Of a DNA stretch of 64,000 nt, positions 12,503 through 54,445 are shown piece after piece. Source of the stretch: an uncultured Candidatus Poseidoniales archaeon. Its GTDB lineage: Archaea; Thermoplasmatota; Poseidoniia; Poseidoniales; Thalassarchaeaceae. The notes under the pieces were generated by a model. It saw only the letters and a program-made list of their open reading frames with translations. It had not been told where the DNA came from and did no database searches. How positions within the stretch are numbered: the stretch's first letter is position 1; each line of letters opens with the position of its first letter. The DNA is taken from the NCBI GenBank assembly GCA_963968165.1, contig CAXAFE010000011.1, forward strand, positions 4,384 to 68,383. The letters are read 5' to 3'. Made by a program: the position numbers and the translations under genes.

Positions 12503-12590
12503 TATATCGACGATTAATACCTCGGCCTTTACGCTACCGCAATATTGACCCGTCATATACAAATTGAATGAGTGCTACGGATGGTCGCGA

Positions 12591-26985: not shown

Positions 26986-27094
26986 GCGCCCGCCTGCGGA
27001 TGCTAATGTATAACTTAGGGTGGATTTGAATCTAATCAAACTTAAATTCATATGAAAGGTCTCAAAAAGGAAGCACAGGTCGAGGGACCGTATT

Positions 27095-27352
27095 ATGTCA
27101 ATCAAAGTACTAAAAAATGAAGGGCGCGAATTAAGAATCCGCATTAGTGGAGAAAGTCATACAACCTTACAAATTTTCAGATCTAGGTTAAATGAAAGTA
27201 AAGATGTAGAATATGCCAATTACTTCCAAAATCATCCGGATTTAGATGATCCAGAAATATTTATTAGAACTAACAAAGGAAAAAAAGCTGAAAAGGTATT
27301 CAAGGATCTGTGTAAAAAATTATCAAAAGAAATTTCAGGAATAAAACTCTGA
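27095..27352 (+). CDS. rpoL: DNA-directed RNA polymerase subunit L (Rpo11)
   Basis: 85 aa. LRIRISGESHTTLQIFRSRL ... VEYANYFQNHPDLDDPEIFIRT matches the RpoL/Rpb11 pattern (GEDHT...A.Y...HP). Confidence 0.8.
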   Translation: MSIKVLKNEGRELRIRISGESHTTLQIFRSRLNESKDVEYANYFQNHPDLDDPEIFIRTNKGKKAEKVFKDLCKKLSKEISGIKL

Positions 27353-37792: not shown

Positions 37793-40700
37793 ATGTTTGG
37801 TAAAAGAGAATGCAAAGCATTTTTACTAGTATCATTAATGATAATTAGTACACAAATATCTCTAATCGGAAGTATTGATTTTAGTTCAGAGTTAAACGAA
37901 GAAGTTCAAAGATTTGAATCAAATAATGGAGATGTAACAATAATCTCTGTTGGTAATTCTCAATCCTGTGCAATTGGTACAGATAACAAAATGAAATGCT
38001 GGGGGGATGGAGATCAGGGTAAAACAGGTCATGAAAATACTGAAGATTATGGAGATGAAACTTTAGAAATGGGACGCTATCTTTATTTTACAGACGTTGG
38101 AACTAATTTAACGTTCTTAGATGTTGCACTAGGAGATACCTTTTCTTGTGCATTAGTAAATGATAGTTCAATTAGGTGCTGGGGAGAGAATGATAAACTT
38201 GGCAATAGTTTAGGTTTATCAGGTTCGGGCTCTAGAGGCGACGGTTATCTTGAGATGGGCTCAAATGTTAATACGGTGAATATTGGTACGTGGTTAGCTA
38301 ATTCCATAGAAGCCGGAGGAAGTCATGCCTGTGCAGTTGTAAATAACGGGACAGATGATTCTTTAGTTTGTTGGGGAGAAAATTCCGTTGGTCAATTAGG
38401 GCTAGGCAGCACAGATACCGTTGGAGATGATGTAGGAGATTTAGAAAGTGGCGAATTGCCTCATGTTGACTTACCAAACAGAGGAGGTATAACCAGCGTA
38501 ACACTTGGCAAGGATCATACTTGTATATTGTGGGCTGACGGAGAAATAGGTTGCTGGGGAGATAACTCTGCAGGACAATTAGGCATAGGAAATACAGACA
38601 CTATTGGAGATGAATCTAATGAAATGAGTACTAATTTGGTACTTGTAGATCTCCCCTCGGACCGTACTGCAACTGCAATTACTGCAGGAAATGATTTCAC
38701 ATGTGCAATTTTGGATGACGCAAGTATTGCATGTTGGGGAGAGGGGAGTAATGGAAGGTTAGGAACAGGAACCATCACTGATGAAGGTGATGAATCTGAT
38801 GAGATTGGAGATGATTTGAATATTGTTAATGTTGGTTCAGGATTAGGTGTTATATCGGCAGATGCAGGAGATTCACATATATGTGCCATATTAACAAATA
38901 ATCAGTTAAAATGTTGGGGAAAAAATGATTTTGGTCAACTTGGATATGGTAACGGACTCTCAATAGGTGATGATGACAATGAAATGGGAGACAGCCTAGA
39001 TGCGGTCTCACTCGGTACTGGAATTACTGCTAGTTCGGTAAAATCTGGAGATTCATTTACTTGTGCCTTAACAAATAATGACAGAGTGAAATGTTGGGGC
39101 TCTGGCGAAGATGGTAGGACGGGGCTTGGAAAAACTGGCGCTACTGGAGATGAGCCGAATGAGATGGGGAATTATTTAGAATATGTGGAGCTTTTTATGC
39201 CTTTAGAGGTATTCAACCTTGAATGTGATGTTGAAGCAGAGGGCGTAGATTCGGAATTATTAGCATTAGACAGTACATCTAACAATGTCGGTAATAAAGT
39301 ATCTACTACACTCAGTTCGAAATCATGTGCCAGTATGGCATATGTTGATGATGAAATAAATACAGCAAAATTTGGCATATATAATCTGAATAAATGGACA
39401 ATAGAGGAAGTTTACATATCGGGTACTTCAATATCCGATACAAGCATAACATTGGACTCAAATGATATTCCCCACTTATTATATATGGACACAGTTCAAC
39501 CCATATATTATACTAAATATGATGGAGAATGGACGTCTACTGCCCTTTCTTCCTCTTGGTTAGGTAGTTCTGTAGATATAGAAATAGACAGCTTGGGTAA
39601 TCTATACTTGTTCTCATTGTCTTCAACTGAATTAAATATAGTAGTTTGCTTGGAATCTTCAGATTGTTTAGATACTTCAAGTTGGACTGAAGTTGGCTCA
39701 ATATCAGTAGTATCAGGAGGATATGGATTAGATTCAGACATATCATATGATGATAAATTATGGATTGGGTATGTAGATGAAACAAGTGGAGATACTGATA
39801 TTGAACTGTCGACATGTTCTAGTTCATGTGAAATAATTGGAAATTGGCAACAAGTAATAATCAGTAATTTAGGAGATATTTCAACTGAAAACGCTTCTGT
39901 TGCATTAGACATAGGGGCAAACGGTTCGGTTCATGTTGCACATAATAATCTCGTAAATGGCCTACAATACTCAAATTGTTATTCAAGTTGTGAATCTGCT
40001 TCATCTTGGACTACTGAAGAAATTTTACAAACTTATAGTACAGGAGTTATTGATATTGGAACTGGACCAGATTTGTCTGTAGTCATAATTGTTGGAACTT
40101 CTAATGGAGAGTTTACACTGCATAAGAAAGATAATCAATGGAATTACAATCAGGTCAGAGGGACAGGAGATTCGGGCTGGCTGGGCATAGAAATAACCGA
40201 TCTTGGACAAATGTGGGGGTTTGCCTTTTATCCTGATAATCCAAATTCATTCTATCAACTAAGGCAACAAGGAATGACAACTCCTGGATTAGAATTAGAT
40301 ATTGATGGAGATGGATGGATGAGAGTAGATGAAGATATGTGCGGTACTAATTTCAGAGATTCTACGAGTATACCAATAGATACTGATGCTGATTATCTGT
40401 GTGAAATTATAGATGGAGCAGTAAGTGGAAATCCTTCAATCGGAGAATCAGATGTTTTGGCTTTAGGTGAAAAATTTGGATGTGCATTATTATCGGACGG
40501 AAGTGTAGCCTGTTGGGGAGATAATTCAGAAGGACAGCTTGGGAACAGTGTTGCAGGTGCAGATAGTGAATATGCAGTATTAGTGGATCTTCCAGATGGT
40601 TTTACGGCATCATCCATTGATGCTGGATCGGGGCATGCTTGTTCGGTAGGCGAGGATTTCTCACTAGTTTGTTGGGGGCGTAATACTGAGGGACAATTAG

Positions 40701-43700
40701 GAAGAGGTACTTTTTCTACATACGAATCCCCTAATTTCGTTAATATTCCTACAGGATTAGGAGTTAATAAATTTGCAATTGGAACTAATCATAATTGTAT
40801 GAAAACGTCTGATGGAGAAATATATTGTTGGGGTGAAAGCGATGATGAGAGACTTGGAAAAATATTAAATCCGGCTATTAATTATTCCATAGTTGATAAC
40901 TTTGAAAATAATGATTTAGATTGGACTCGAACGATAGGTAATTATTTCAATTGGGATAATTCTGGTTTTTTGTATAAAACCTATTATAATTCCTGGTCAA
41001 CAGACGTCATAGAATCAGATGCATTTAGTATTAATCCTGGTTCGGTTATTCAAATAAAAGTTGATGCACTACGACTTGGAGATAATGGAGGAACTTTGGA
41101 AGTTTTCATTGGAGAACAATTGATATCTACATTAACAGATTCTGATTGGCATGATAATATTTGGACAGGGTATAAAACAATTAATATCACCGTACCGGAT
41201 TCAATACTAGATAATGTAGGATTAAAATTTAGAGTTTATTGTTACAGGTGTACGGTTAAAATTGATGATTTAAATACTGAAAATACTGCTTATGGTGGAG
41301 TAAGTGATCTAAATATTCCTACTAAGCTGGATTTTGATAATTCGGATTCTATTTCAGAGATAGCACTTGGTGATCGTCATTCTTGTACTGCTTCTGTTAC
41401 CAATTCGGGTGATGATGAGATATATTGTTGGGGATATAATGGAGGAATAAACTCTAATGTTTTAGGAAATTATAATTACTATGGAATAAATAGTTACTTG
41501 CCACAATTAGTAGATTTATCAGGTCCGGATAGTTTGGTCTCCTCCAATTGGTCGACTAATTCAATTGTGAGTATCAATGCTGGTAGCGATACTACATGTT
41601 CAATTCTAGACAGTCTGGAATCTGTGTGTTGGGGGAAATCCGCTTTGACAGAATATATTAATCCAAGTATCGACACTGTGGCGTCGACAGGCGACATAGG
41701 AAGGCATCCTGCATTAATGCTGGACAGCAATAATTACTGGAATATTGCATTTTATGATTCCTCGAATAGTGATTTGAGATTAGCATATTATGATGGAGTA
41801 AGTTGGAATGTAGAATCGGTTTATGCCGGTAGTAATGATGTTGGAGAAGGAGTAACAATTACATTAGATGGAGATGGGAATAAGCATTTGGTTGCGTATG
41901 ACCATACGGATGATGAAATAGTACATATGACTAAAATGATAAACTCGACAGAATTGATAGCCAATATTGATGGTAATTCATATAATCCTGCTACTGTAGT
42001 AGATTCAGAAGGTAATATCCATATTGCCTATCTTGAAGGTACTACAAAAACTTTACAGTATATCTATTATAATGGAACATCTTGGTCCTCACCGATCCTT
42101 ATTGATGATTATTTAACCTGGAGCGGTTATGGAACTAATGATTTACAAATTGATTCATCTGGTAATTTACATCTAAGTTACTATAATTGGAATACAGCTC
42201 CTTCTAATGACCCGCATGAATTAACTTACGCAACATATAATGGTTCTGTTTGGTCCACTTACGCACTTCAAGAAATGATATGCTCTGGAGCATGTGGAAC
42301 GAATGGATTCAGTTCGTCCATAGAAATAGATGTAAATGATCGCCCCCATATCTCATATTATGATCAAAAGAATGATACGTTAAGATATACTCATTATGAT
42401 GGTACTAGTTGGACTGATGAAACGGTAACTACGGATGATGATAACAATAATGGTATTTATAATTCAATAAGCTTAGATAATAATGATTATCCCAGAATAG
42501 CGTACTATAATGTGACACATGCAGATTTAGATTTAGCCGTATGGGACGGTTCAACATGGTCTTTTCAAAAAGTAGATACAATGAATTCAGTTGGAACATA
42601 TCCCTCAATTTCCATTGGAACTGATGATTTAACAAGAATTGCCTACACTTATGCATCCCAGAGTGATATAAAATATGCAAGTAGCACTGGAACTGATTGG
42701 AATTTTCACACATTTGAAGGATCTTACAGTTCCATAGTTTCCTTAGGGCTTGACGATTTAAACAATCCTAGAATTTCTGCTATCAATATTGATGGAACTG
42801 ACAATGTAGTATTATTTTATAATAATAGTAATGAGTGGATAGAATATAATGTTGAAGATAACTCAGGAACTAATAGCAATCATCCTAGTATGTTTGTAAA
42901 TTCGGATGGAACTGCATATATTGCATACGTAAATGCCGGCGATGGATTCGTTAGATATTCTACGATCTACACTGGCACGATTTGGAATAAAAATAATATT
43001 GCAACTACTGGAGATGTTTCAACTTCTTATCCAGGATTGGGGATGCACTTTGACAGAACCGATTTCTTGAATTTAAAATATATTGATTCTACAGATTCTG
43101 CTCTCAAAAGTACAATTGTTCGTAATAAAGGAGATTTATTATCGTCATTAGTTGATGGTGAGAATACAAATTCCGGAAAACATTCATCAATAGTGGTTGA
43201 TAGTGCAGGAAACACACACGTCTCCTATTACAATATAAGTAGTACATCATTGATGTATGCAAAATATAATAATTCATGGGCAATTGAAGAGGTAGATAAC
43301 ACGGGCACCTCTGGAGTTTATACTTCAATTGTAATTGATGACCAAGATATGCCGCATATATCCTATCAAAGTGAAGCGAAATTAAAATATGCAAAATACA
43401 ATGGTTCTGGTTGGGAATTAACCACCATAGATGATGAATCGACATATTTGGCATATGAAACATCTATCGAACTTGATACTAATTATAATCCTCATATCGC
43501 CTATAGAGTGCAAAATTATACTGGTTCCACATATGAATATCATGTAAAATATGCACATTACAATGGCACTAATTGGACTACAGAAGACGTAAAAACTAGT
43601 GATAGGTCAAATTGGAATTCATATTCAAATACCGGACGGGATGTTTCTATAGCTCTTAATAGTACTAATACAGTTTTTATAACATATTATGATGATTATT

Positions 43701-46700
43701 GGGATGATTTGTATATTGCCAATAAGACTGGTAATAATTGGACTACATCAAAAATAGCAGATAATGCTGGAGGAAATGAAAGAAGTGCCTCAATTATTGT
43801 AGATTCAACAGATAGCATACATTTAGCATATTATGATAGATCTGGGTATGATTTACATTATGCATTTTGTCAATCTTCATGTGAGCTCTTTACCTCTTGG
43901 ATTCATACTCTAGATATAGATTCGTCGAGTTATAATATTGGCACATACGTCAGTATTGCATTAGATTCTGATAATAATCCGCACATAGGCTATTATGATT
44001 CTGCTTATGCAGATTTAGAATATGCTTATTGTACTGATTTATGTTCAAGTGCTTCATCATGGGTGAAAGAGACCATTAGTTCTGATAACAATGTTGGTTA
44101 TCATGTATCGATATCAGTTGATAGTAACGATAATATATATTTTTCATATTATAATGCTAGCAATACAGGGTTGGAGATTATTAATTTATTTTCTGGAATT
44201 GATGATACAACCATTATATCTCCTATTGGAAGCCATCATTATCAGTTGGGATTCGTAAATTTAGATGGTACTGAGCATTTATCATATTATAATGGCACAG
44301 ATACCTCTGGAAAATTACAATATTCAACAATTAATTTAGAAACAGGATTATGGGGGGCCACAACTGTAGATGAAAGTTCTACTAAAACAGGATTATATTC
44401 CGATATAGATTTAGATAGCTATGGAAATCCGCATATATCATATTTTGACTCCACGAATAACAAGATAAAATATGCATATTATGATAGTTCCTCGTGGGTA
44501 ATTTCTGATGTAGCTACAGTAGGTGAAAATAGTGGATATACATCCATTGTTATCAATTCAATTAATAGACCAAATATAGCATATCATGATTCCACAACCG
44601 GAGATTTGATGATGGCAAAGTGGGATGGTAATTCCTGGACGATATTGGCTCAAGATGAAGGATCCGCCGGACTAGGAACAGATATTTCAGTAGACAACAC
44701 TGATATGATATTTATTTCATACTACGATGAGACGACAGATGATTTAGAGTTTGTAACTACAGGTTATGAATCGCCGATCCTTACTGGAAACTCGTATTAT
44801 CATATCTCTGGTACTTCACTCGATAATGGTTCAGGGCCTATTAAGTCTATTGATATTGGAGAAACGCATGCATGCGCCATAATGCAGATTACGATCAAAT
44901 GTTGGGGGAGTTCACAATCAGGCCAATTGGGTAATGGAGTGGTAGCCGATACTTCATTATCCCCAGTTAGTGTTAATTCCGTAGGTGGATTTACTCCGCT
45001 AGAAGTTTCAGTATCTATTAATTCAGATTCCAATGGAGGCTCTTCTTGTGCGCTTTATTCTGAGGATTTAACAAATCAAAGGGTTGTTATGTGTTGGGGA
45101 TACGGAGAAAATGGCCAAATCGGAGATGGGGCTGATATTTCATTAAACTCGCCAAGTAGCACTAGTAAAGTAAGCATAGATTTCGAAATTGCATTAGGAA
45201 TTGCATATGGAAGTGATTATGTGTCCACGGGTCAAAATGATCCAATGAAGATATCATTATCGTCAACGAGTAATTTTGGTTGTGCTATGTCGTACAAAGG
45301 GCATGTCAAATGTTGGGGATATAATGGCTATGGGCAACTTGGAATAGAAAATACTACTAATAGTGGAGATAGTGATAACGAGATGGGTTCAAATCTTAAA
45401 TTTGTTTCTTTAGGAGTAAATAGAACGGCAAAGGATATCTCATTGGGTGGATCTCATGCTTGTGCAATTTTAGATAATAATCAAGTAAAATGTTGGGGAT
45501 ATAATGGCTATGGGCAACTTGGAATTGAAAATAATACTCAAATAGGAGATAATTATGGAGAACTATGGGGCGATAATCATCCTTCGATAAATCTAGGAAC
45601 TGGAAGGACGGCAGTTGCAATATCAACAGGATTTTCACATACATGTGTCATTTTAGACACCGGCGATATCAAATGTTGGGGATATAATGGCTATGGGCAA
45701 CTTGGAATTGGAAGTACTGCTACAATAGGGGATAACCCTAATGAGATGGGAGATAATTTAGCAAAAGTAGACTTAGGATATGGTAGAACAGCATTAGCAA
45801 TTGTAAGTGGAACAAATTCAAACTGCGCTATATTAGATAGTGGATTGATAAAATGTTGGGGGAGAAATAATGTAGGACAACTTGGAATTGGAAGTACTAC
45901 TCAAATTGGAGATAATACTAATGAGATGGGTAATAATCTAGAAATATCCAGATTAGGGACAGATACGATTGCACTTTCATTATCAGGAGGAGGTTCAAAT
46001 TATTGTGCTTTGACCAATAATAGAGATATCAAATGTTGGGGACATAATGGCTATGGGCAACTTGGAATTGAAAATACTACTCAAATGGGAGATAATGTTA
46101 ACGAGATGGGAGACAATTTAATAAAAGTTGATTTAGGAACTGGAAGATCTGCTATCAGAATTTCGACAGGTAGTACTCACACATGCGTAATATTGGATAA
46201 TGAAGATTTTAAATGTTGGGGATATAATGGCTATGGGCAACTTGGAATTGGAAGTAATACTCAAATTGGAGATAATACTAATGAGATGGGAGATAATTTA
46301 ATTTCTCCTGAATTGCCGTTAAATTCAATAAAGGTATTAGAATCTGGTAATCATAATACATGTGCCATCTTATTCGACAACACAATAAGGTGTTGGGGAT
46401 ATAATGGCTATGGGCAACTTGGAATTGGAAGTACTGCTACAATAGGAGATAATCCTAATGAGATGGGTAATGAGATGGCCATTACTAATCTTCACCTTAT
46501 ACCTAAAGATTCAGATGGAGATGGATGGATTGACTTGTGGGATAATGATGATGATAATGATGGATATTTAGATATTTATGATCATCTACCACATGATAGT
46601 CGAGATTGGAGAGATTATGATGGAGATGGATTAGGAACTAATGTTGATACAGACGATGATGATAGTGATGTAAAAACAGTAGATCAGGATACAATATTAA

Positions 46701-49700
46701 CTTGGTCAGATGAAGAGGAGATAGCATGCGGCTATTTGCCTTGGAGTAGTTTATCGACTCCTGCAGATTATGATGGAGATGGAATATGCGATGCATTGGA
46801 TATGGACTTAGATGGCAATGGATGGAATAATACATATCAGAAACAATGCTATGGAGAAGAGATTGATTTATGGAAAAATACAGAAATTTGGGGAAATACA
46901 GCAAGTGCCAATGTACCCTATTCTACTTATGATGGTGCTGGTTACGGAGGTTATGACTTCCTTATTTCCGATTATGGAATAAAGTCATATGCCACGTATA
47001 GTAATTTTTATTTAAGCCAAGGTTTAATCAGGCATGATGAGTCTGTATCTATTCAATACACCAACTACGTTTATTATGCATACGATTATTTTGAAGTTTT
47101 AGAACAAAATGGAATTATTTATGTGAATAATGAAGAACAAATAATTAGATTTCAAGATATAAATAATACAGGTACAGGAACTACTGTATCATCCTCGTTG
47201 GGTCAAGGCCCAATGGGAAGTGATATGGCCATTAGTAAAGATGGAGATATGGTTGTAAGTTATAATCAAGCAGAAAATAAGATAGTTGGGAATTATCTAA
47301 ATGGGACAGTTTTTAGTTTTAATTTACCCAGTAACCTTGGTGCAGGAGGACAAATAGCTTTCGGCCCTAATGGCAGACTCCACCTTATTGAGGTTGATTT
47401 GAATGCAAGAGATTCAGATTTACCCATTGGATTCTATCATTATTTCGCTGATTTAAATAATTCACTATCTGGTTATTCATCTATGGATTGGAGTACAGGG
47501 CAATTAGTACTTGAAAGAAATCAGAGTACTACTTCTTATTCCGCAAATACTCAATCGGATGCAGATAGTTATCATGCTGATTTACATGTAACCGATGCAG
47601 GTAATATTTACGCTGCTATGTATAATAATACTGATTTATGGAGTGCTTCCTATGCAGGGTCTACATGGACTAATCAAAAAATTGCTGAAGATACAGGAAA
47701 TAATGAAGGAATAATAATATCTTCTGATTCCTCAGGGACCCCTCATATTGGTTGGATTAATCACACATCTGATAAGTTAATTATCTCAATATTTGATAGT
47801 TCTGAATGGATAGATGTCGAAATTTGGGAAAGTGATGGATGGGCCCCTGGGTTAAGACGTTCTAAATTATCATTGAGATTTGATAGTAATGACGATTTAT
47901 TTTTGATGTCGTATAATGCTAATTCAACAAATAGTGCCCTGATTCATCATAAAGTTCCATTGATTAATCCCGCATATTCATACAACCCCGTAGATCATGA
48001 TACTGATGGAATATGCGATAGTTTACAATATTCCATTATAGATTATGGAAGTACGACTTTTCAATTAATAGAAGGGAACGAGGTTACCATTAATCCAACT
48101 TTTAGAGGTCTAGAAATTGTTGAAGTGTATTCAACAAATCTTCCCTCAGGATTATCTTTGAATTCCACAACAGGCATCATAACGGGTTCTCCAACTGATA
48201 CCGACTTAATTGGAACATCTGTAACAGTCTATTCCAATAGTAGTAATTCTTCTTACACACACACCATAACGATATATGTAATCTCAAAAACTCCGACGAT
48301 AGCAGGAGTATCAACCCCTATACAAGTTAATGTTAATTATGAAAGAACCCAACACGAATATGATTCAGAAGGTAATCTATATTATTATGGAAGATATTCC
48401 TCGACTACTATTCCTGGTGAATTTACACCAGATGGGATATCCATATCAGGACTAACTAATGATGATGCTTATGTTGCTAAGAGGTTTAGTAATGGGACTT
48501 GGGCTTGGTTTTTCCCAATAAATGGTACCTCCACATTATATACAGGTAATTTAGCTGTAGATGATTTAGGAAATTCATATATCGTTGGAAATAGAGATTC
48601 TGGAGTGATAGATTTACCGGGCACTGTTTGGGATTTACCATCTGGAAAAGCGCCATTTATTATCTCAATAGATAATACTGGATCAATAAGGTGGGCAAAG
48701 GATATGGAAAGTACGGGCTCCATAAATTGGAAATTTGGAGTAAGGTATCAATTTGTAAGAGATTATGGGCATAGCGAGTTACATATTGATAATGCAACAG
48801 GAGAATTGACTTTTTCAGGAAGCATCAGTTCCACAGGTGTGACCCAGGAAGAAAGGACAGCAACATTTGGAAATTTGACATTGGAAATTGGAACTTCGTA
48901 TACTAGTTACTACAGGCCATTTGTGTTTAAAATGGATTCTTTAGGGGAATTTATTTGGGTACAAAGCATTACACCCAGTTATGCCCAACATTCTCCTCTT
49001 CAAGGGATGGCAGTACAGGAAAACGGGACAGTTAGTTTACTCTGGAAGTCATATTCCAGCTCTGTTGCGGGATCCATCACTGTTGGTGAAAATGGAGTTT
49101 GGCAGTTTATTTTAGCCAATATTAATTCAACAGGACATTGGACAAACAGTAAATCGATTTTAGAAGAAACCGACCATAACCGTATTGCCTCAACAGAGGT
49201 AGGTGCAAAAATGGAAAGTGTCAAGAACGGCGATATTGTAATTGCAATGTGGTCTTTGGATGATACTAGTAAAATAAGAATATCTGATAGCATTTATTGG
49301 TTCAATGAAACATGTGTAGATAGTTTAGCAATACTTAGATTAGATGGTACAGACTGGCAAGTAGAAAATAGTTTAGAAATATGTTTGGCTGGAAACGGAG
49401 GCAGCGGCGCCAGTAAAACTGATAAAATGGAAGTAGATTCACAGGATAGGATTTGGCTTTTTATAGGATCAACTTCTTTAAGTAACCATAATAGAATCAT
49501 TAGATTAGATTCAATACTTAATACCGATTTTGAAGAATATTTCACTTATGCTAATAATAGAGGTAATTCTTTCTATATCTATTGGCAAGATGTGACTTTT
49601 GATAATGATGATAATGTCTTTTTAACAATATATAATAATGCTTATTCTTCTTTGTGGTGGGATGAGTCCAGTATTCCTTATACTTACAATATTTATTATA

Positions 49701-52700
49701 GAAATTTATTCCTTATGGATAAAGTTCGACATACAATTGATGGGAAAAATCCAGTATTTGGTGAGCAGATTAACTATGGAATCAATGGACTCAGTGCTAT
49801 GGGAGGAAGTGATTATGATCAGATTGATAGTTATGCAATTTCACCCGATCTACCTGATGGTTTAGAATTTAATATTGGAACTGGAGTGATATCGGGCACC
49901 GCCATAACAAATTCTTCATTAGCTAATTATACAATATGGGTTAATGATACATTACTAGGAAATCAGGTCTTAAATATCGCTTTTGAAGTGCTCAATGGGA
50001 AACCCAATGTTACTTATGAGCAAACAGAATTCATATTCGAACGGGGGGCGATAATAGCGCCTATTGTCCCGACAGAGATCAATGGAACTATAGTTTCGTG
50101 GAATGTAGTACCCGCACTCCCGTTTGGATTGAGTATGGGAGAAAGTAATGGTACTATTTGGGGCATACCAACAGTTAACTTAACTTCTACAATATTTAAC
50201 TTGCAAGTAAGTAGTGATGGGGCTACTAGAAATATATATTTTAATTTCACAATTAATGAGCCCTTGGCTACAATAACATATGGAAATGGCTCGTATATTG
50301 TTGGAAGAGATTCACTAGTAAGCATATTCCCCGCATTAGGAGGAGGGGAAATTGCGAGTTTTGGAATTACACCAACATCATTACCAATGGGGCTTGAATT
50401 TAATCCTGCGACAGGAAGTATTACTGGAACTCCACTTTTGGTTGTTGGTGCAGTTAATTATACAGTTTTTGCTAACAATTCAGGAGGTTCTGTAAATACT
50501 AGTCTCATACTAACAGTTACAGGTAGTGGGATTAGTCTAGTATTTCCTACCTCATCAATAGAATTGGTCAACGGAAGTGAAATGCAACCCATTGCAGGTC
50601 AAACATCGGGTTCTGCACCAAATTATTGGGAAATATCGCCAGAATTACAGGATGGACTAGAATTTGGAATTTTCAATGGAACGATTTGGGGCACTCCATC
50701 TGAGGTAATGAATTCAACCACTTACATCATCTGGGCAAATACTACAGGAGGAGAGACTGCTAATGCAGAATTAACAATCTCCGTACTCATAGATACGGAT
50801 GGAGATGGCACTCCCGACACCATAGATATTGATGATGATAACGATGGTTGGAGCGATATTGATGAAAATAATTGTGGAAATAATCCATTAGATAATACTA
50901 ATTATCCAAGTGATTCAGATGCTGATGGGATTTGTGATTCTTTAGATACCAATAATGATGCTGATATAATAATATTATATCCAACAAATGAATTATATAT
51001 TACAGTTAACCAAAGTTTCACACCACTTGTGCCATTTACTTCTGGAGGAGATATTACAGGTTGGGAAGTCAGCCCTAACCTGCCATTTAATATAGAATTA
51101 AATAGTTCAACAGGCGTTGTCTCAGGGATGGCTACGACCATATTTAATGCCACTACATATACCATATGGGCAAATAATTCAGCGTATTCTGGATTGTTTA
51201 ACCTTTCAATAATTTCATCACTTTTGGATACTGATGGAGATGGTAGCCCAGATGAAACAGATTTGGATGATGACGGAGATGGTTGGACTGATACAGATGA
51301 AATCACATGCCTTACTAATCCACTGGACTTAGAAGATCTCCCGGTTGATAGTGATGGAGATGGAATTTGTGACGGGGCTGATCCAGTTAATGATTCAGAA
51401 ATATTCTTCAGTTATCCATATACTGTATTAGTAATTACCGTTAATAGCTCGGTATCACTAAATCCGTATGTTACTGGAGGAGACGTCATAACGTGGGAAA
51501 TATACCCTCAATTACCTGAAAATTTGATTTTTAATTCTGATAATGGACTAATTAATGGAGAAGCCATATCTGAGTTCCTCCCTACAAATTTTACAATATG
51601 GGCTAATAATTCTCAATATTCATCTATGTTCATAATAGAACTTGCTTCATTATTGTTAGATACTGATGAAGATGGAGTTCCAGATGAAACAGATATAGAT
51701 GATGATGGAGATGGTTGGACTGATAGTCAAGAAATAAATTGTTCGAGCGACCCATTGATAGCGTCAAGTATTCCACCAGATAGTGATGAGGATAATGTAT
51801 GTGATAATTTAGATGACGTAAATGATGCACAAATATATTTGACATATTCTAGCCTTTCTCAGAATTTATTTGTAAATGAACCAATGGACTACTTAGTAGC
51901 AACTGTTTATGGAGGAGATGTAAGAGAGTGGGAAATTAGCCCTGAATTACCTTTAGGACTCAATTTGGACAATGGAGTTGCATATAGATCTCTTTCCATG
52001 GTAGGAACAGGATTAATATCGGGTTCGCCGATGTATGAATTTCCATTAACTATTTTTACAGTTTGGGCTAATAACTCACAACATAGCGATTCTATAGCGA
52101 TTGCTTTAAAATCTTCAATTCCTGATTTGGATGATTCATATTTTGATTTACTTTACCTTGAAGATAATATTAATTTAACTATAGAATTTGATGAGTTATA
52201 CCTTGAGCCAGAAATATTTGGCGGTAATGTAACAAATTGGAGCATTATTCCTCAAATTCCAGAAGGATTGATATTTAATTTCGATAATGGAGTAATTTCT
52301 GGACAACCATTAATTTCATTTAATGAAACGATATTTTCAATATCAGCTAGTAATTCTATTCATATTGATATTTTTAATCTAACACTATCTGCTCAATATC
52401 TTGATTCAGATTTAGATGGAATTCCTGATATAATAGATGAAGATGATGATGGAGATGGTTGGAATGATACTATGGAAATAGATTGTGAAACTGAACCACT
52501 AGAATTTTATCTCTCCCCTGGTGACACAGATGGAGATGGAATGTGTAATCTATTAGACACATTAGATGATTCTCCAATCCTTTTCTTTTACCCTAATGAT
52601 AAGATAATTGGCATTGTTGGTGAAGAAATTCAATCGATTGTTCCAAGAATAGCACCGTCAGGAGGAGATATTCTTGAATATAGTGTATCTACACCATTAC

Positions 52701-54445
52701 CAGATGGATTAATCATTGATATCTTTACTGGAGTAATTTCCGGGACACCATTAGTACAATTTGATCATTTAATTTTGGAATTCTCTCATACAATTACAGC
52801 AAGTAATGGACAGTATAATTTTTCTTATTCTGTAGATTTTGATATCATTCCGAAAATTATTGAAGACTTGGATACTGATGGTGATGGCTGGACCAACCAA
52901 GATGAGCTTAGCTGTAATACCTCTCAAATCGATCCAGAGTCTTATCCTCAAGATATTGATCTTGATGGAAAATGTGAACTGATGGATGATGATGATGATG
53001 GTGACGGAAGGGCAGATGAAATAGATGCGTTTGCAAACAATTCTTATGCGTGGGAAGACACTGATGGTGACGGAATTCCGGATGATGTTACATGCAAATA
53101 TTCAACAAACTCTTCTTATTGTATTTCTTTAGATTTGATAGCTGATACAGATGATGATGGTGACGGTTGGAATGATACTGCAGAAATAAGCTGTGGTACA
53201 AATCCTAAGAATGGTACTAATATGCCACTAGATGATGATGAGAATGGAGTATGTGATCGTTTAGAAATACAAGAAGTAGCCAATAACAAAATATTTTGGA
53301 TAGTTTGTTTTCCATTAGTATTGATATTGTTATTATTGTTCTGGCTATTAAATCCATTTGGAGTTAATGACGATGAAATAAGGGGCCCCGAACCGCCATA
53401 TACTAAATTCACCCCAAAGATACAAGAGGGCACTGGCGAATATGATAATCCATTCATACTTAAATCGATAAAAGGCGTTAGGGCCGGAGGAAGCACCCAA
53501 TCAAGAGAACTGATAAAGATTACAAATATTACGCCTAGATTAGAAATAGATTTTATCAATTTATCTACTGATGACGATAATGGGAGATTTAGCATGAAGA
53601 ACATTAAAGCTAATTCAAGAGGCGAAATAGAATTTAGGCTCGATTTCAATGATTACAATATTAGTCAGGAAGGTTCTAAATATAGTGCATTTATGAGAAT
53701 TGGAAAGGCGTCTGTATACTTGAAATGGGATGTAGAAGTTAAAAACACAAAAGATCTTACAGAGGAAGGAAGTCTACCAGTAAAAAATACTGCAAATACC
53801 GCTGTAAAGGTAGTTGAAGCTGAAGCTACTAGGCTGGCTGAAGAAGCTGAAGCTACTAGGCTGGCTGAAGAAGCTGAAGCAGATCAACGAATAAAAAGGA
53901 CTCTAGAAGAAATGGCTATATCAGAAGTTGATAAGATAAAGGAAAGAAAGATAAGGCTGGCTGAAGAAAAGAAGGTGGAACTATTGAGAAGAGTTGCAGA
54001 AAAAGCAAAAACCATTGATTTTGACATTATTGGTTATGCGGCAACTGCTGATGTCACAACTGAGATAACTCCAGGATTGGAAAGTATCACTCTAGGTGAT
54101 GCATCTTCTTTCCCAGAAAGTGGGAATGCATACATCAAAGATGAAAAAGTAAACATATCCATCAAATGGACTGGGAAAGATGGAGATACGCTGATAGGAA
54201 TTTCTGGCATAAATATGCACACACCAATCGGTTCAATGATAGTTCAAAAAGATAATTTACAAGACATAAAAGGTATTGGCCCATTTATAGAAGAAAAATT
54301 GAATGCTTTAAGCATATATACATTTAACCAGATATCAAATATGACTCATGAAATAGAAGAACAGGTTAATAATGCCATTGAATTCTTCCCGGGAAGAATA
54401 AGGAGAGATGAGTGGGTAAAACAGGCTTACGATTTTTTAAATTGA
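37793..54445 (+). CDS. Giant (5,550 aa) mosaic cell-surface protein: RCC1 propellers + unnamed ~48-aa repeats + TSP3 Ca-binding repeats + Ig-like (He_PIG-type) domains + TM + cytoplasmic coiled-coil/H3TH tail
   Basis: A single uninterrupted ORF in the track. The N-terminus is signal-like (AFLLVSLMIISTQISLIGS). By my count there are 21 CWG..N..GQLG blade signatures (7+5+9), ~10 LP.GL.F...TG.I.G.P motifs and many DxDxDGxxDxxD motifs. One TM helix (IFWIVCFPLVLILLLLFWLL) lies at 53291-53352, followed by a ~365-aa tail. Confidence 0.9.
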   Translation: MFGKRECKAFLLVSLMIISTQISLIGSIDFSSELNEEVQRFESNNGDVTIISVGNSQSCAIGTDNKMKCWGDGDQGKTGHENTEDYGDETLEMGRYLYFTDVGTNLTFLDVALGDTFSCALVNDSSIRCWGENDKLGNSLGLSGSGSRGDGYLEMGSNVNTVNIGTWLANSIEAGGSHACAVVNNGTDDSLVCWGENSVGQLGLGSTDTVGDDVGDLESGELPHVDLPNRGGITSVTLGKDHTCILWADGEIGCWGDNSAGQLGIGNTDTIGDESNEMSTNLVLVDLPSDRTATAITAGNDFTCAILDDASIACWGEGSNGRLGTGTITDEGDESDEIGDDLNIVNVGSGLGVISADAGDSHICAILTNNQLKCWGKNDFGQLGYGNGLSIGDDDNEMGDSLDAVSLGTGITASSVKSGDSFTCALTNNDRVKCWGSGEDGRTGLGKTGATGDEPNEMGNYLEYVELFMPLEVFNLECDVEAEGVDSELLALDSTSNNVGNKVSTTLSSKSCASMAYVDDEINTAKFGIYNLNKWTIEEVYISGTSISDTSITLDSNDIPHLLYMDTVQPIYYTKYDGEWTSTALSSSWLGSSVDIEIDSLGNLYLFSLSSTELNIVVCLESSDCLDTSSWTEVGSISVVSGGYGLDSDISYDDKLWIGYVDETSGDTDIELSTCSSSCEIIGNWQQVIISNLGDISTENASVALDIGANGSVHVAHNNLVNGLQYSNCYSSCESASSWTTEEILQTYSTGVIDIGTGPDLSVVIIVGTSNGEFTLHKKDNQWNYNQVRGTGDSGWLGIEITDLGQMWGFAFYPDNPNSFYQLRQQGMTTPGLELDIDGDGWMRVDEDMCGTNFRDSTSIPIDTDADYLCEIIDGAVSGNPSIGESDVLALGEKFGCALLSDGSVACWGDNSEGQLGNSVAGADSEYAVLVDLPDGFTASSIDAGSGHACSVGEDFSLVCWGRNTEGQLGRGTFSTYESPNFVNIPTGLGVNKFAIGTNHNCMKTSDGEIYCWGESDDERLGKILNPAINYSIVDNFENNDLDWTRTIGNYFNWDNSGFLYKTYYNSWSTDVIESDAFSINPGSVIQIKVDALRLGDNGGTLEVFIGEQLISTLTDSDWHDNIWTGYKTINITVPDSILDNVGLKFRVYCYRCTVKIDDLNTENTAYGGVSDLNIPTKLDFDNSDSISEIALGDRHSCTASVTNSGDDEIYCWGYNGGINSNVLGNYNYYGINSYLPQLVDLSGPDSLVSSNWSTNSIVSINAGSDTTCSILDSLESVCWGKSALTEYINPSIDTVASTGDIGRHPALMLDSNNYWNIAFYDSSNSDLRLAYYDGVSWNVESVYAGSNDVGEGVTITLDGDGNKHLVAYDHTDDEIVHMTKMINSTELIANIDGNSYNPATVVDSEGNIHIAYLEGTTKTLQYIYYNGTSWSSPILIDDYLTWSGYGTNDLQIDSSGNLHLSYYNWNTAPSNDPHELTYATYNGSVWSTYALQEMICSGACGTNGFSSSIEIDVNDRPHISYYDQKNDTLRYTHYDGTSWTDETVTTDDDNNNGIYNSISLDNNDYPRIAYYNVTHADLDLAVWDGSTWSFQKVDTMNSVGTYPSISIGTDDLTRIAYTYASQSDIKYASSTGTDWNFHTFEGSYSSIVSLGLDDLNNPRISAINIDGTDNVVLFYNNSNEWIEYNVEDNSGTNSNHPSMFVNSDGTAYIAYVNAGDGFVRYSTIYTGTIWNKNNIATTGDVSTSYPGLGMHFDRTDFLNLKYIDSTDSALKSTIVRNKGDLLSSLVDGENTNSGKHSSIVVDSAGNTHVSYYNISSTSLMYAKYNNSWAIEEVDNTGTSGVYTSIVIDDQDMPHISYQSEAKLKYAKYNGSGWELTTIDDESTYLAYETSIELDTNYNPHIAYRVQNYTGSTYEYHVKYAHYNGTNWTTEDVKTSDRSNWNSYSNTGRDVSIALNSTNTVFITYYDDYWDDLYIANKTGNNWTTSKIADNAGGNERSASIIVDSTDSIHLAYYDRSGYDLHYAFCQSSCELFTSWIHTLDIDSSSYNIGTYVSIALDSDNNPHIGYYDSAYADLEYAYCTDLCSSASSWVKETISSDNNVGYHVSISVDSNDNIYFSYYNASNTGLEIINLFSGIDDTTIISPIGSHHYQLGFVNLDGTEHLSYYNGTDTSGKLQYSTINLETGLWGATTVDESSTKTGLYSDIDLDSYGNPHISYFDSTNNKIKYAYYDSSSWVISDVATVGENSGYTSIVINSINRPNIAYHDSTTGDLMMAKWDGNSWTILAQDEGSAGLGTDISVDNTDMIFISYYDETTDDLEFVTTGYESPILTGNSYYHISGTSLDNGSGPIKSIDIGETHACAIMQITIKCWGSSQSGQLGNGVVADTSLSPVSVNSVGGFTPLEVSVSINSDSNGGSSCALYSEDLTNQRVVMCWGYGENGQIGDGADISLNSPSSTSKVSIDFEIALGIAYGSDYVSTGQNDPMKISLSSTSNFGCAMSYKGHVKCWGYNGYGQLGIENTTNSGDSDNEMGSNLKFVSLGVNRTAKDISLGGSHACAILDNNQVKCWGYNGYGQLGIENNTQIGDNYGELWGDNHPSINLGTGRTAVAISTGFSHTCVILDTGDIKCWGYNGYGQLGIGSTATIGDNPNEMGDNLAKVDLGYGRTALAIVSGTNSNCAILDSGLIKCWGRNNVGQLGIGSTTQIGDNTNEMGNNLEISRLGTDTIALSLSGGGSNYCALTNNRDIKCWGHNGYGQLGIENTTQMGDNVNEMGDNLIKVDLGTGRSAIRISTGSTHTCVILDNEDFKCWGYNGYGQLGIGSNTQIGDNTNEMGDNLISPELPLNSIKVLESGNHNTCAILFDNTIRCWGYNGYGQLGIGSTATIGDNPNEMGNEMAITNLHLIPKDSDGDGWIDLWDNDDDNDGYLDIYDHLPHDSRDWRDYDGDGLGTNVDTDDDDSDVKTVDQDTILTWSDEEEIACGYLPWSSLSTPADYDGDGICDALDMDLDGNGWNNTYQKQCYGEEIDLWKNTEIWGNTASANVPYSTYDGAGYGGYDFLISDYGIKSYATYSNFYLSQGLIRHDESVSIQYTNYVYYAYDYFEVLEQNGIIYVNNEEQIIRFQDINNTGTGTTVSSSLGQGPMGSDMAISKDGDMVVSYNQAENKIVGNYLNGTVFSFNLPSNLGAGGQIAFGPNGRLHLIEVDLNARDSDLPIGFYHYFADLNNSLSGYSSMDWSTGQLVLERNQSTTSYSANTQSDADSYHADLHVTDAGNIYAAMYNNTDLWSASYAGSTWTNQKIAEDTGNNEGIIISSDSSGTPHIGWINHTSDKLIISIFDSSEWIDVEIWESDGWAPGLRRSKLSLRFDSNDDLFLMSYNANSTNSALIHHKVPLINPAYSYNPVDHDTDGICDSLQYSIIDYGSTTFQLIEGNEVTINPTFRGLEIVEVYSTNLPSGLSLNSTTGIITGSPTDTDLIGTSVTVYSNSSNSSYTHTITIYVISKTPTIAGVSTPIQVNVNYERTQHEYDSEGNLYYYGRYSSTTIPGEFTPDGISISGLTNDDAYVAKRFSNGTWAWFFPINGTSTLYTGNLAVDDLGNSYIVGNRDSGVIDLPGTVWDLPSGKAPFIISIDNTGSIRWAKDMESTGSINWKFGVRYQFVRDYGHSELHIDNATGELTFSGSISSTGVTQEERTATFGNLTLEIGTSYTSYYRPFVFKMDSLGEFIWVQSITPSYAQHSPLQGMAVQENGTVSLLWKSYSSSVAGSITVGENGVWQFILANINSTGHWTNSKSILEETDHNRIASTEVGAKMESVKNGDIVIAMWSLDDTSKIRISDSIYWFNETCVDSLAILRLDGTDWQVENSLEICLAGNGGSGASKTDKMEVDSQDRIWLFIGSTSLSNHNRIIRLDSILNTDFEEYFTYANNRGNSFYIYWQDVTFDNDDNVFLTIYNNAYSSLWWDESSIPYTYNIYYRNLFLMDKVRHTIDGKNPVFGEQINYGINGLSAMGGSDYDQIDSYAISPDLPDGLEFNIGTGVISGTAITNSSLANYTIWVNDTLLGNQVLNIAFEVLNGKPNVTYEQTEFIFERGAIIAPIVPTEINGTIVSWNVVPALPFGLSMGESNGTIWGIPTVNLTSTIFNLQVSSDGATRNIYFNFTINEPLATITYGNGSYIVGRDSLVSIFPALGGGEIASFGITPTSLPMGLEFNPATGSITGTPLLVVGAVNYTVFANNSGGSVNTSLILTVTGSGISLVFPTSSIELVNGSEMQPIAGQTSGSAPNYWEISPELQDGLEFGIFNGTIWGTPSEVMNSTTYIIWANTTGGETANAELTISVLIDTDGDGTPDTIDIDDDNDGWSDIDENNCGNNPLDNTNYPSDSDADGICDSLDTNNDADIIILYPTNELYITVNQSFTPLVPFTSGGDITGWEVSPNLPFNIELNSSTGVVSGMATTIFNATTYTIWANNSAYSGLFNLSIISSLLDTDGDGSPDETDLDDDGDGWTDTDEITCLTNPLDLEDLPVDSDGDGICDGADPVNDSEIFFSYPYTVLVITVNSSVSLNPYVTGGDVITWEIYPQLPENLIFNSDNGLINGEAISEFLPTNFTIWANNSQYSSMFIIELASLLLDTDEDGVPDETDIDDDGDGWTDSQEINCSSDPLIASSIPPDSDEDNVCDNLDDVNDAQIYLTYSSLSQNLFVNEPMDYLVATVYGGDVREWEISPELPLGLNLDNGVAYRSLSMVGTGLISGSPMYEFPLTIFTVWANNSQHSDSIAIALKSSIPDLDDSYFDLLYLEDNINLTIEFDELYLEPEIFGGNVTNWSIIPQIPEGLIFNFDNGVISGQPLISFNETIFSISASNSIHIDIFNLTLSAQYLDSDLDGIPDIIDEDDDGDGWNDTMEIDCETEPLEFYLSPGDTDGDGMCNLLDTLDDSPILFFYPNDKIIGIVGEEIQSIVPRIAPSGGDILEYSVSTPLPDGLIIDIFTGVISGTPLVQFDHLILEFSHTITASNGQYNFSYSVDFDIIPKIIEDLDTDGDGWTNQDELSCNTSQIDPESYPQDIDLDGKCELMDDDDDGDGRADEIDAFANNSYAWEDTDGDGIPDDVTCKYSTNSSYCISLDLIADTDDDGDGWNDTAEISCGTNPKNGTNMPLDDDENGVCDRLEIQEVANNKIFWIVCFPLVLILLLLFWLLNPFGVNDDEIRGPEPPYTKFTPKIQEGTGEYDNPFILKSIKGVRAGGSTQSRELIKITNITPRLEIDFINLSTDDDNGRFSMKNIKANSRGEIEFRLDFNDYNISQEGSKYSAFMRIGKASVYLKWDVEVKNTKDLTEEGSLPVKNTANTAVKVVEAEATRLAEEAEATRLAEEAEADQRIKRTLEEMAISEVDKIKERKIRLAEEKKVELLRRVAEKAKTIDFDIIGYAATADVTTEITPGLESITLGDASSFPESGNAYIKDEKVNISIKWTGKDGDTLIGISGINMHTPIGSMIVQKDNLQDIKGIGPFIEEKLNALSIYTFNQISNMTHEIEEQVNNAIEFFPGRIRRDEWVKQAYDFLN
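37930..39190 (+). repeat. RCC1-like block 1 (7 blade signatures)
   Basis: The blades read KCWGDGDQG, RCWGENDKLG, VCWGENSVGQLG, GCWGDNSAGQLG, ACWGEGSNGRLG, KCWGKNDFGQLG and KCWGSGEDGRTG. Each is followed by ..GD...EMG and a ..(H/F)(A/T)CA strand. Confidence 0.8.
39330..40270 (+). repeat. First block (~6 units) of the unnamed ~48-aa repeat, several with a C-x3-C...W insert
   Basis: Units include PIYYTKYDGEWTSTAL, IELSTCSSSCEIIGNWQQV, LQYSNCYSSCESASSWTTE and FTLHKKDNQWNYNQV. Confidence 0.6.
40441..41650 (+). repeat. RCC1-like block 2 (5 blade signatures) interrupted by a ~140-aa non-RCC1 insert at ~40861-41290
   Basis: ACWGDNSEGQLG, VCWGRNTEGQLG and YCWGESDDERLG precede the insert. The insert begins ILNPAINYSIVDNFENNDLDWTR and ends RVYCYRCTVKIDDLN. 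YCWGYNGG and VCWGKS follow it. Confidence 0.7.
41690..44780 (+). repeat. Main array, ~21 units, of the unnamed ~48-aa repeat
   Basis: The consensus read by eye is G.Y.SI.(L/V)D(S/N)..N.PHI(S/A)YYD....DL.YA.Y(D/N)G(S/T).W..E.V. Example: TYVSIALDSDNNPHIGYYDSAYADLEYAYC..., LYSDIDLDSYGNPHISYFDSTNNKIKYAYYDSSSWVISDV. Confidence 0.75.
44840..46480 (+). repeat. RCC1-like block 3 (9 blade signatures); the last 7 form a ~180-nt DNA-level tandem array
   Basis: The core TGTTGGGGATATAATGGCTATGGGCAACTTGGAAT starts at 45311, 45491, 45674, 46214 and 46391 (identical), at 46034 (1 mismatch) and at 45854 (diverged). Spacings are 180/183/180/180/180/177 nt. Confidence 0.9.
49840..53260 (+). repeat. Ig-like (LPxGLxF..TGxIxGTP, He_PIG-type) domains, from ~50780 alternating with TSP3/Cys modules
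   Basis: Example Ig-like run: ISPDLPDGLEFNIGTGVISGTA...YTIWVN. TSP3/Cys modules are LLDTDGDGSPDETDLDDDGDGWTDTDEITCLTNPLDLEDLPVDSDGDGICDGAD and three or four further copies. Confidence 0.75.
53816..53881 (+). repeat. Perfect in-frame 27-nt tandem duplication (2.4 copies) in the tail of the giant ORF
   Basis: GAAGCTGAAGCTACTAGGCTGGCTGAA occurs at 53816-53842 and 53843-53869, followed by 12 nt of a third copy. It encodes (E)AEATRLAE x2. Confidence 0.95.
54251..54442 (+). other. C-terminal H3TH-like (COG3743/DUF4332-like) domain of the giant protein
   Basis: NLQDIKGIGPFIEEKLNALSIYTFNQISNMTHEIEEQVNNAIEFFPGRIRRDEWVKQAYDFLN aligns by eye, residue for residue, with the C-terminus of the 33615-36254 protein. 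Confidence 0.65.

Follow-up and report, generated by a model that had tools for sequence, protein, structure and literature searches.

The 64,000-nucleotide window analysed here (positions 4,384 to 68,383 of contig CAXAFE010000011.1, from an uncultured Candidatus Poseidoniales archaeon) contains a giant gene, a single uninterrupted open reading frame (ORF) of 5,550 codons (37793..54445, + strand), which holds the whole of an array of tandem ~48-residue repeats. The gene product is a type-I-like, single-pass membrane-anchored surface protein, because it combines an N-terminal signal-like hydrophobic segment (residues 10-28, from a hydropathy scan), a single strong C-terminal transmembrane helix (53291..53359, residues 5167-5189; mean Kyte-Doolittle value of 2.95 over 19 residues) and a cytoplasmic tail. 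The ectodomain, between the signal-like segment and the helix, comprises ~5,130 residues, and the ~360 residues that follow the helix consist of a coiled coil and a ~65-residue C-terminal domain. All these features, like those described below for the same ORF, lie on the + strand. We consider it reasonably probable that the array, at 41699-44794, represents 21 blades that form three seven-bladed, multivalent glycan-binding propellers on a membrane-anchored adhesin of the Poseidoniales (Marine Group II).

The repeat units were delineated with a hidden Markov model (HMM) that started from six clear units and was refined by iteration over the giant protein. It reports 21 consecutive units that cover residues 1303-2334, with per-unit E-values of 1e-20 to 1e-8 and lengths of 41-63 residues (median ~48), in good agreement with the original prediction, made from the sequence alone, of about 21 tandem ~48-residue copies at 41690-44780. 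The HMM-derived consensus, G.Y.SI.LD...N.PHISYYD....DL.YA.Y(D/N)G(S/T).W..E.V, also agrees with the one that had been read from the translation. Units 2, 8, 10, 17 and 21 are poorly conserved; units 8 and 10, as well as 17-18, are degenerate, and unit 21 is devoid of the Trp strand. Tandem Repeats Finder found no DNA-level tandem repeat in the array, which has therefore not been amplified recently. The giant ORF has a syntenic ortholog in the metagenome-assembled genome "Euryarchaeota archaeon UBA557" (L001), which NCBI taxonomy places in Candidatus Poseidoniales, and this ortholog matches the array unit by unit at 60% identity. Within the array, the identity between units averages 30%, whereas each unit is 35-76% identical to its positional counterpart in the UBA557 ortholog; judging from these identities, the array is old and stable. 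The repeat is found in no other ORF of the window.

Structure prediction gives blade-like, all-beta sheets for both segments that the original prediction had proposed to model, those of seven and of 21 units. The AlphaFold2 (AF2) model of units 1-7 alone, built from a 52-row alignment, has a predicted local distance difference test score (pLDDT) of 85.3 and a predicted template-modelling score (pTM) of 0.85, and exhibits exactly 28 strands, which fall into seven sets of four that coincide with the seven units. The model of the whole array, built from a 50-sequence alignment, is also all-beta with four strands per unit (mean pLDDT 71, pTM 0.60); here units 9 and 11-14 are confident and units 1-2 are weak. 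The assignment of one four-stranded blade to each unit, already suggested from the strand-like periodicity, and of a seven-bladed propeller to module 1 (units 1-7; 41699..42718, residues 1303-1642) is thus well supported by modelling. The earlier proposal of three such propellers holds in its first part, on AF2 and Foldseek evidence, and for the other two it leans on the modularity of the homologs and on a model of lower confidence, from which we infer that modules 2 and 3 are most likely seven-bladed as well. Module 2 (units 8-14; 42719..43774, residues 1643-1994) is delineated by the unit HMM, with a boundary drawn from the seven-unit modularity of the homologs, and module 3 (units 15-21; 43775..44794, residues 1995-2334), also delineated by the unit HMM, begins with two Cys variants, units 15 and 16. 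We had considered an N-terminal "velcro" strand, the candidate being EYINPSIDTV before unit 1 (starting at nucleotide 41651), the family consensus running from W..E.VD to DLKYA. This assignment was not retained: AF2 closed blade 7 with the Trp strand of unit 7 itself, and the N-terminal strand is of low confidence. This leaves an uncertainty of one strand as to where each module begins and ends.

Foldseek analysis of the single-module model (units 1-7) against the PDB returns as its first 22 matches the seven-bladed lectins PLL, PHL and PLL2-5 (E 1e-15 to 1e-14, 12-14% identity), with template-modelling (TM) scores, in two normalisations, of 0.70-0.74 (TMq) and 0.73-0.80 (TMt). The CV39L lectin, also seven-bladed, scores ~0.71 in both (11% identity). 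Among seven-bladed enzymes, GH145 reaches a TMq of 0.65-0.67 and a TMt of 0.61-0.64 (16-18% identity), PL42 0.62 and 0.54 (15% identity), and PL25 0.63-0.66 and 0.53-0.56 (13-14% identity). The six-bladed AofleA gives a TMq of ~0.55 and a TMt of ~0.57 (0.52-0.59 overall, 10-12% identity), and the six-bladed sialidases stay below 0.5 and 0.4, respectively (11-14% identity). The three-module model returns the same ranking, with a TMt of 0.65 for RSL. The size of a module, ~345 residues, falls in the range of the lectins (336-354 residues) and not in that of the enzymes (375-440 residues). No BNR Asp-box, whether S.D.G.[ST]W or [ST].D.G..W, occurs anywhere in the array.

At the sequence level, the array has no credible match in Pfam (E<=10), NCBIfam (E<=1) or, with phmmer, the PDB sequences, and the Pfam scan of the giant ORF places nothing on the 21-unit region. 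Homologs are nonetheless numerous: of 8,000 candidates scored, 351 match the array at E<=1e-5 (best E=1e-134, 25-30% identity), and module 1, searched against the full set of 1.84 billion cluster representatives, matches 14,934 of them at E<=1e-3, 8,825 at E<=1e-10 and 2,008 at E<=1e-30. The survey of lineages that had been suggested with the original prediction hence finds the repeat across Bacteria and Archaea, the named sources being Bacillota, Chloroflexota, Elusimicrobia, Desulfobulbaceae, Nitrospirae, Bathyarchaeota, Methanoregula and Poseidoniales. The partner domains in these homologs are extracellular ones (PKD, fn3, Big, CARDB, dockerin, PGF-pre-PGF). Two Pfam models come close to the family. 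DUF7253 (PF23911; gathering threshold of 25.1 bits, 110-position model) scores above threshold in 23 of 52 aligned family members, with a maximum of 75.7 bits in homolog P0002, always through profile positions ~64-89, as many weak repeats and never at full length. BNR_4 (PF15892; gathering threshold of 27.3 bits) does so in 16 of the 52, through one blade-sized stretch (positions ~222-269 out of 272). Neither model gives a match with the array, whole or module by module, within E<=10. These models touch the family through partial, single-blade matches, and by these searches no dedicated Pfam model describes the repeat. The original prediction had been unable to assign the repeat to a named family; this stands for the array itself and has to be amended for its relatives, which connect it indirectly, together with the lectin fold, to propeller families already described.

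The homologs also inform on the number of units per folding module. Among the 120 homologs listed, unit counts peak at 7 (14 proteins), at 14 (50 proteins, and 22 more with 13) and at 20-22 (9 proteins), and the long linkers, where present, come after every seventh unit. The homolog P0001, for instance, comprises seven units, a 202-residue spacing, seven units, a 65-residue spacing and a last group of seven to eight units, and P0002, P0008 and P0020 are organised similarly. This modularity is the strongest sequence-based evidence for seven units per folding module. A seven-unit periodicity within the window itself was dropped as evidence, as its peaks are broad and weak (p=0.05).

A search of the PDB sequences with a shorter query leads to lectins of another blade number. 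With units 19-21 (137 residues) as query, all 34 matches at E<=10 belong to RSL, BambL, AofleA, AAL and AFL. The E-values obtained with engineered single-chain RSL (6e-7 to 4e-6) are inflated, one two-blade match being summed three times; those of the native proteins are 0.011-0.03 for RSL, 0.025 for BambL, 0.031 for AofleA, 0.24-0.30 for AAL and ~1 for AFL. The alignment with RSL keeps two blades in register, its gaps being one of a single residue and one of two residues, and HHalign analysis of a two-blade family profile against an RSL fragment covers 70 columns in the same register (P=3e-4, probability of only 39%). The similarity with RSL and AAL is suggestive of a distant common ancestry, not of membership: we do not assign the array to the fucose-lectin family, the single-blade family profile having no significant match with RSL, and the Pfam Fungal_lectin model does not match the array. 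RSL binds fucose via Arg17, Glu28, Ala40, Trp76 and Trp81 (PMC3466270). When its site pairs (Arg17/Glu28 and Arg62/Glu73, with the aromatics Trp31/36 and Trp76/81) are compared with the array, the Arg17 equivalent is Ser or Ala in 17 of the 21 units, and the Glu28 equivalent is Tyr or hydrophobic in all 17 units aligned at this position. The aromatic pair persists, in the form of [Y/W]31 and W36, the Trp36 equivalent being Trp in 15 out of 15 aligned units: array units possess one near-invariant Trp and a Tyr or Trp five residues upstream, and 10 of them follow the strict pattern [Y/W]-[DN]-G-x-x-W.

De-novo-designed TIM barrels (sTIM11, DeNovoTIM6, HalluTIM and the AI-designed F2C) were the sole PDB matches of the multi-module and single-blade profiles, with E-values down to 3e-12. 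They were rejected as coincidental because of a low alignment posterior and a fold class incompatible with the all-beta model. The match arises from a 24-residue segment, IAYRSDDWRDLKEAWKKG, present in four copies in the alpha/beta design, that resembles the "ISYYD..N.DLKYA.W.G" portion of the repeat. The multiplication of a short motif coincidence by repeat symmetry inflates E-values, which calls for caution in profile searches with repeat queries.

Two further blocks of the same unit occur in the giant protein, and the unit HMM bears out the shorter, degenerate stretches that had been noticed at ~39330-40270 and ~47000-47960. Block A (39281..40297, residues ~497-835) contains ~7 degenerate units, counted by eye, with HMM E-values of 1e-13 to 1e-5. 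It is 67% identical to the UBA557 ortholog, with all Cys kept, and is probably, from its sequence, a degenerate fourth propeller of the array's family. Block C (47120..47962, residues ~3110-3390) comprises at least three degenerate units by HMM and ~5 by eye. The giant protein thus has three, probably four or five, tandem propeller modules.

Some blades depart from the consensus at the turn that precedes the Trp. Two blades of the array (units 15 and 16) and three adjacent ones of block A have, in place of the [Y/W]-D-G-x-x-W turn, a longer C-x3(-5)-C-x4-6-W loop, and all five turns quoted in the original prediction are found: YAFCQSSCELFTSW in unit 15 (43859..43900, CQNSC in the ortholog), YAYCTDLCSSASSW in unit 16 (44021..44062, CYSSC in the ortholog), and VCLESSDCLDTSSW, STCSSSCEIIGNW and SNCYSSCESASSW in block A (39638-39685, 39806-39847 and 39968-40009, all kept in the ortholog). 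A sixth C-x3-C (CSGAC) lies between units 4 and 5, at nucleotides 42281-42295. The first Cys of the variant occupies the position of the conserved turn aromatic, the one that stacks on the sugar in RSL. Among the 120 homologs listed, the Cys-loop pattern is essentially restricted to two RCC1-containing relatives of Poseidoniales type; one propeller of P0105, a database relative that has the same RCC1 and He_PIG architecture and is annotated as Poseidoniales, shows YATCxSSCxxASSW in five of its seven blades. All Cys-variant pairs are conserved in the UBA557 ortholog, and the variant is, as far as these sequences go, Poseidoniales-specific and conserved. An intra-loop disulfide at C-x3-C is plausible because of this conservation and of the extracellular location, a metal site being the alternative.

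The giant protein also contains other repeats and domains. Pfam analysis reports three blocks of RCC1-like propeller (WD40_RLD, RCC1 and RCC1_2, E 1e-79 to 1e-29), the first at 37907..39232 (residues ~39-480), the second, at residues ~880-1283, on the N-terminal side of the 21-unit array, and the third, at residues ~2350-2900 (44840-46492), on its C-terminal side. He_PIG Ig-like domains cover residues ~3400-4900, and bacterial TSP3 calcium-binding repeats are also identified. Between RCC1 repeats, at ~40913-41330 (residues ~1041-1180), a ~140-residue insert contains NFENNDLDWTRTIGNYFNWDNSGF and KFRVYCYRCTVKIDD and has no Pfam match; it is possibly a small beta-sandwich or a carbohydrate-binding-like domain. 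This insert is among the least conserved parts relative to the UBA557 ortholog (57% over residues 1041-1302). Another segment, at ~48590-49670 (residues ~3600-3960), is repetitive and beta-rich, with the motifs YDSEGNLYYYG, VDDLGNSYIVG and IDNTGSIRWA; by eye it resembles a different, SBBP-like propeller repeat, and it returns no Pfam match and only marginal matches with the unit HMM. Within the coiled coil of the tail, a perfect 27-bp tandem repeat (53816-53880, 2.4 copies) encodes EAEATRLAE; the 16.6-kb gene has no other recent repeat at the DNA level. The C-terminal ~65-residue tail domain (54245..54442) resembles the C-terminal extension of the NuoE, L21, S2 and PhaH NCBIfam models (partial matches, E 2e-13 to 1e-4). 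The UBA557 locus has the same four genes upstream, and its giant ORF is cut off by the end of the contig. Of the 82 Cys of the giant protein, 81 are kept as Cys in this ortholog at a regional identity of only 50-83%, a conservation which suggests that the ectodomain may be extensively disulfide-bonded or metal-binding.

The genes surrounding the giant ORF fit an archaeal host and encode an HTH_10 regulator, TruD, topoisomerase IB, MscS and a DEAD helicase. Upstream of the giant gene, an ORF (33615-36254, + strand) encodes an 879-residue, Lys/Glu-rich coiled coil without Pfam match. It sits on a strongly purine-rich stretch (AT skew 0.46) and is kept upstream of the UBA557 ortholog. By eye, its C-terminus is the same ~65-residue domain (…ISTFEQISKMTDEIADEVNEAIEHFPGRIRRQGWVQQAK) as that of the giant protein's tail, which may point to a cytoplasmic partner shared by the two proteins or to a physical link between them. 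A second very large protein, of 2,015 residues and probably secreted, is encoded at 6515-12562 (- strand) and comprises a subtilase domain (Peptidase_S8) and PPC. A protein-degrading lifestyle has been proposed for Marine Group II, with which this ORF is consistent. Lastly, two large MMPL/RND-type transporter genes (17023-20340 and 24412-27144, both on the - strand; 1,105 and 910 residues) are found in the 20 kb that precede the giant gene.

Regarding function, we infer that the propellers bind glycans and mediate adhesion. Each of them would bind glycans multivalently, at sites repeated between blades, and together with the RCC1 propellers, the He_PIG domains and the thrombospondin-type calcium-binding repeats they would promote adhesion to glycan-bearing particles or phytoplankton surfaces. 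Ligand recognition would not be RSL-like, because the Arg/Glu pair is missing, and the C-x3-C loop, probably disulfide-closed, would remove the sugar-stacking aromatic at the sites where it replaces the turn aromatic. Glycan binding is favoured by the compact, regular, lectin-sized propellers, by the structural ranking, by the extracellular stalk-type partners, by the membrane anchor, by the presence of TSP3 and Ig-like domains in the protein and by the wide occurrence of thrombospondin-type adhesion genes in Poseidoniales (PMC6461757).

Several results weigh against this assignment. The array sequence has no significant match with any lectin Pfam model, and the PLL/PHL chains are absent at E<=10 from four sequence or profile searches of the PDB. 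The link with RSL is weak (E=0.011 for native RSL, the low HHalign probability given above, and E=140 with the single-blade profile), and its Arg/Glu pair is absent from all 21 units; with Arg17 and Glu28 replaced throughout, the positions conserved in all blades could serve structure only. The genomic contexts of three compact homologs (P0057, P0011 and P0068) show no carbohydrate-related operon or polysaccharide-utilisation locus, and no recurrent neighbours. Within the array, unit-to-unit similarity gives only a weak seven-unit periodicity, with broad peaks and a permutation p of 0.05, and modules 2-3 are modelled at mixed confidence, units 8, 10, 17 and 18 having a pLDDT below 50.

A bolder version of the lectin assignment, which we regard as doubtful, would make the family an undescribed class of multivalent seven-bladed lectins, with an inter-blade site formed by the conserved His15, Ser17, Tyr28, [Tyr,Trp]31 and Trp36, in place of the Arg/Glu/Trp site of RSL and AAL, and specific for a different, widespread glycan. 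If true, Poseidoniales would use the family as a main means of attachment to the glycans of phytoplankton or particles, and their disulfide-closed C-x3-C blades would switch off or retune individual sites in a lineage-specific manner.

We deem it about equally unlikely that the propellers are protein-protein scaffolds or structural spacers, in which the residues conserved in every blade would only determine the fold. YWTD, WD40 and RCC1 propellers often are scaffolds or spacers, and the same protein has three RCC1 blocks without known sugar function. The G/S/D/PH-I-S-Y-Y-D/L-K-Y-A/G..W pattern is near-identical across thousands of proteins from unrelated phyla, as expected of a structural motif, and the absence of the lectin Arg/Glu pair points the same way. 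Foldseek analysis of the three-module model also finds the propellers of megalin (YWTD) and DDB1; however, these matches have TM scores below 0.3, whereas the best structural matches in both normalisations are all carbohydrate-binding or carbohydrate-active seven-bladed propellers, and the only PDB sequence matches, besides the designed-protein artefacts, are fucose lectins.

That the modules are catalytic, as surface-tethered lyases or glycosidases of BNR_4, PL24, PL25, PL42 or GH145 type degrading algal polysaccharide, is in our judgement improbable. BNR_4 is a domain of the PL25 ulvan lyases, and PL25 and PL24 are seven-bladed propellers (PMC13193363), so that the 16 of 52 family members passing the BNR_4 threshold speak for an enzyme, as do the structural matches with GH145, PL42 and PL25 (TMq 0.62-0.67), which have the highest identities listed (13-18%), and the presence in every blade of conserved His and Tyr, the residue types of PL25 catalysis. 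The BNR_4 matches, however, are limited to one blade-sized stretch and leave the window itself unmatched, and profile searches of PDB sequences miss both PL25 and GH145 (E=0.23 for the latter). The known enzymes are 30-90 residues longer and possess cleft-forming loops and non-equivalent blades, whereas the modules are lectin-sized and regular, and three to five tandem copies in an adhesin-like protein is not an enzyme-like architecture. As for the periodicity being a chance or compositional pattern of a low-complexity, Asn/Ser/Thr/Asp-rich ORF, the region is indeed rich in these residues and units 2, 8, 10, 17 and 21 are poorly conserved and poorly modelled, but unit E-values down to 1e-20, the 351 homologs, the 14,934 representatives, the unit-by-unit correspondence with the ortholog and the confident AF2 model already refute it, and we give it practically no weight.

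The uncultured Marine Group II ranks with the most abundant archaea of the surface ocean; its attachment to particles and phytoplankton has been deduced mainly from flagella and thrombospondin-type genes. A 5,550-residue protein with three to five lectin-like seven-bladed propellers is a concrete, expressible candidate for glycan adhesion. It belongs to a family of ~15,000 representatives across Bacteria and Archaea, with no dedicated Pfam model and no characterised member, so a repeat model, together with the ligand of a single member, would allow many surface proteins to be better annotated. The outcome is a useful annotation of modest novelty, which includes a lineage-specific Cys-loop blade variant.

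Among known systems, the best structural match to our putative adhesin modules is with the PLL/PHL lectins, which share their compact size (336-363 residues for the lectins) and their seven four-stranded antiparallel blades of ~48 residues. In PLL/PHL, sugars are bound between blades, at up to seven sites per monomer, the arrangement that we propose as a model for the array modules, and the inter-blade fucose site is formed by two Trp together with Thr/Val backbone (PMC5584973). Each PLL/PHL site has two Trp, whereas the array units average 1.1 Trp; moreover, these lectins are soluble ~40-kDa oligomers of an insect pathogen, while the array modules follow one another in tandem within a giant, membrane-anchored archaeal protein. 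The RSL and AAL lectins are six-bladed, in contrast with the seven-bladed array modules, although Pro14, Ile16, Tyr19, the W-D-G-x-x-W turn and the blade length of RSL are common to the array units. GH145, PL42, PL25 and PL24 resemble the modules as seven-bladed propellers, but they exceed the modules in length (PL25 by 90 residues) and have a catalytic cleft and blades that are not equivalent. DUF7253, itself without known function, differs in that relatives hit only part of its profile and the window goes unmatched. Lastly, "Cluster 16" of the predicted fibrillar adhesins (Monzon and Bateman 2022) is a beta-propeller overlapping with BNR_4 and found in stalk-and-tip architectures; its function is ambiguous, adhesion having been suggested from a fucose-lectin superfamily annotation (PMC9210967). 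Its partner domains (PKD, Ig and fn3) resemble in kind those of the array homologs. The family is neither a new fold nor a new kind of system, but a populous, unmodelled member of the known group of seven-bladed lectin-like and carbohydrate-active propellers.

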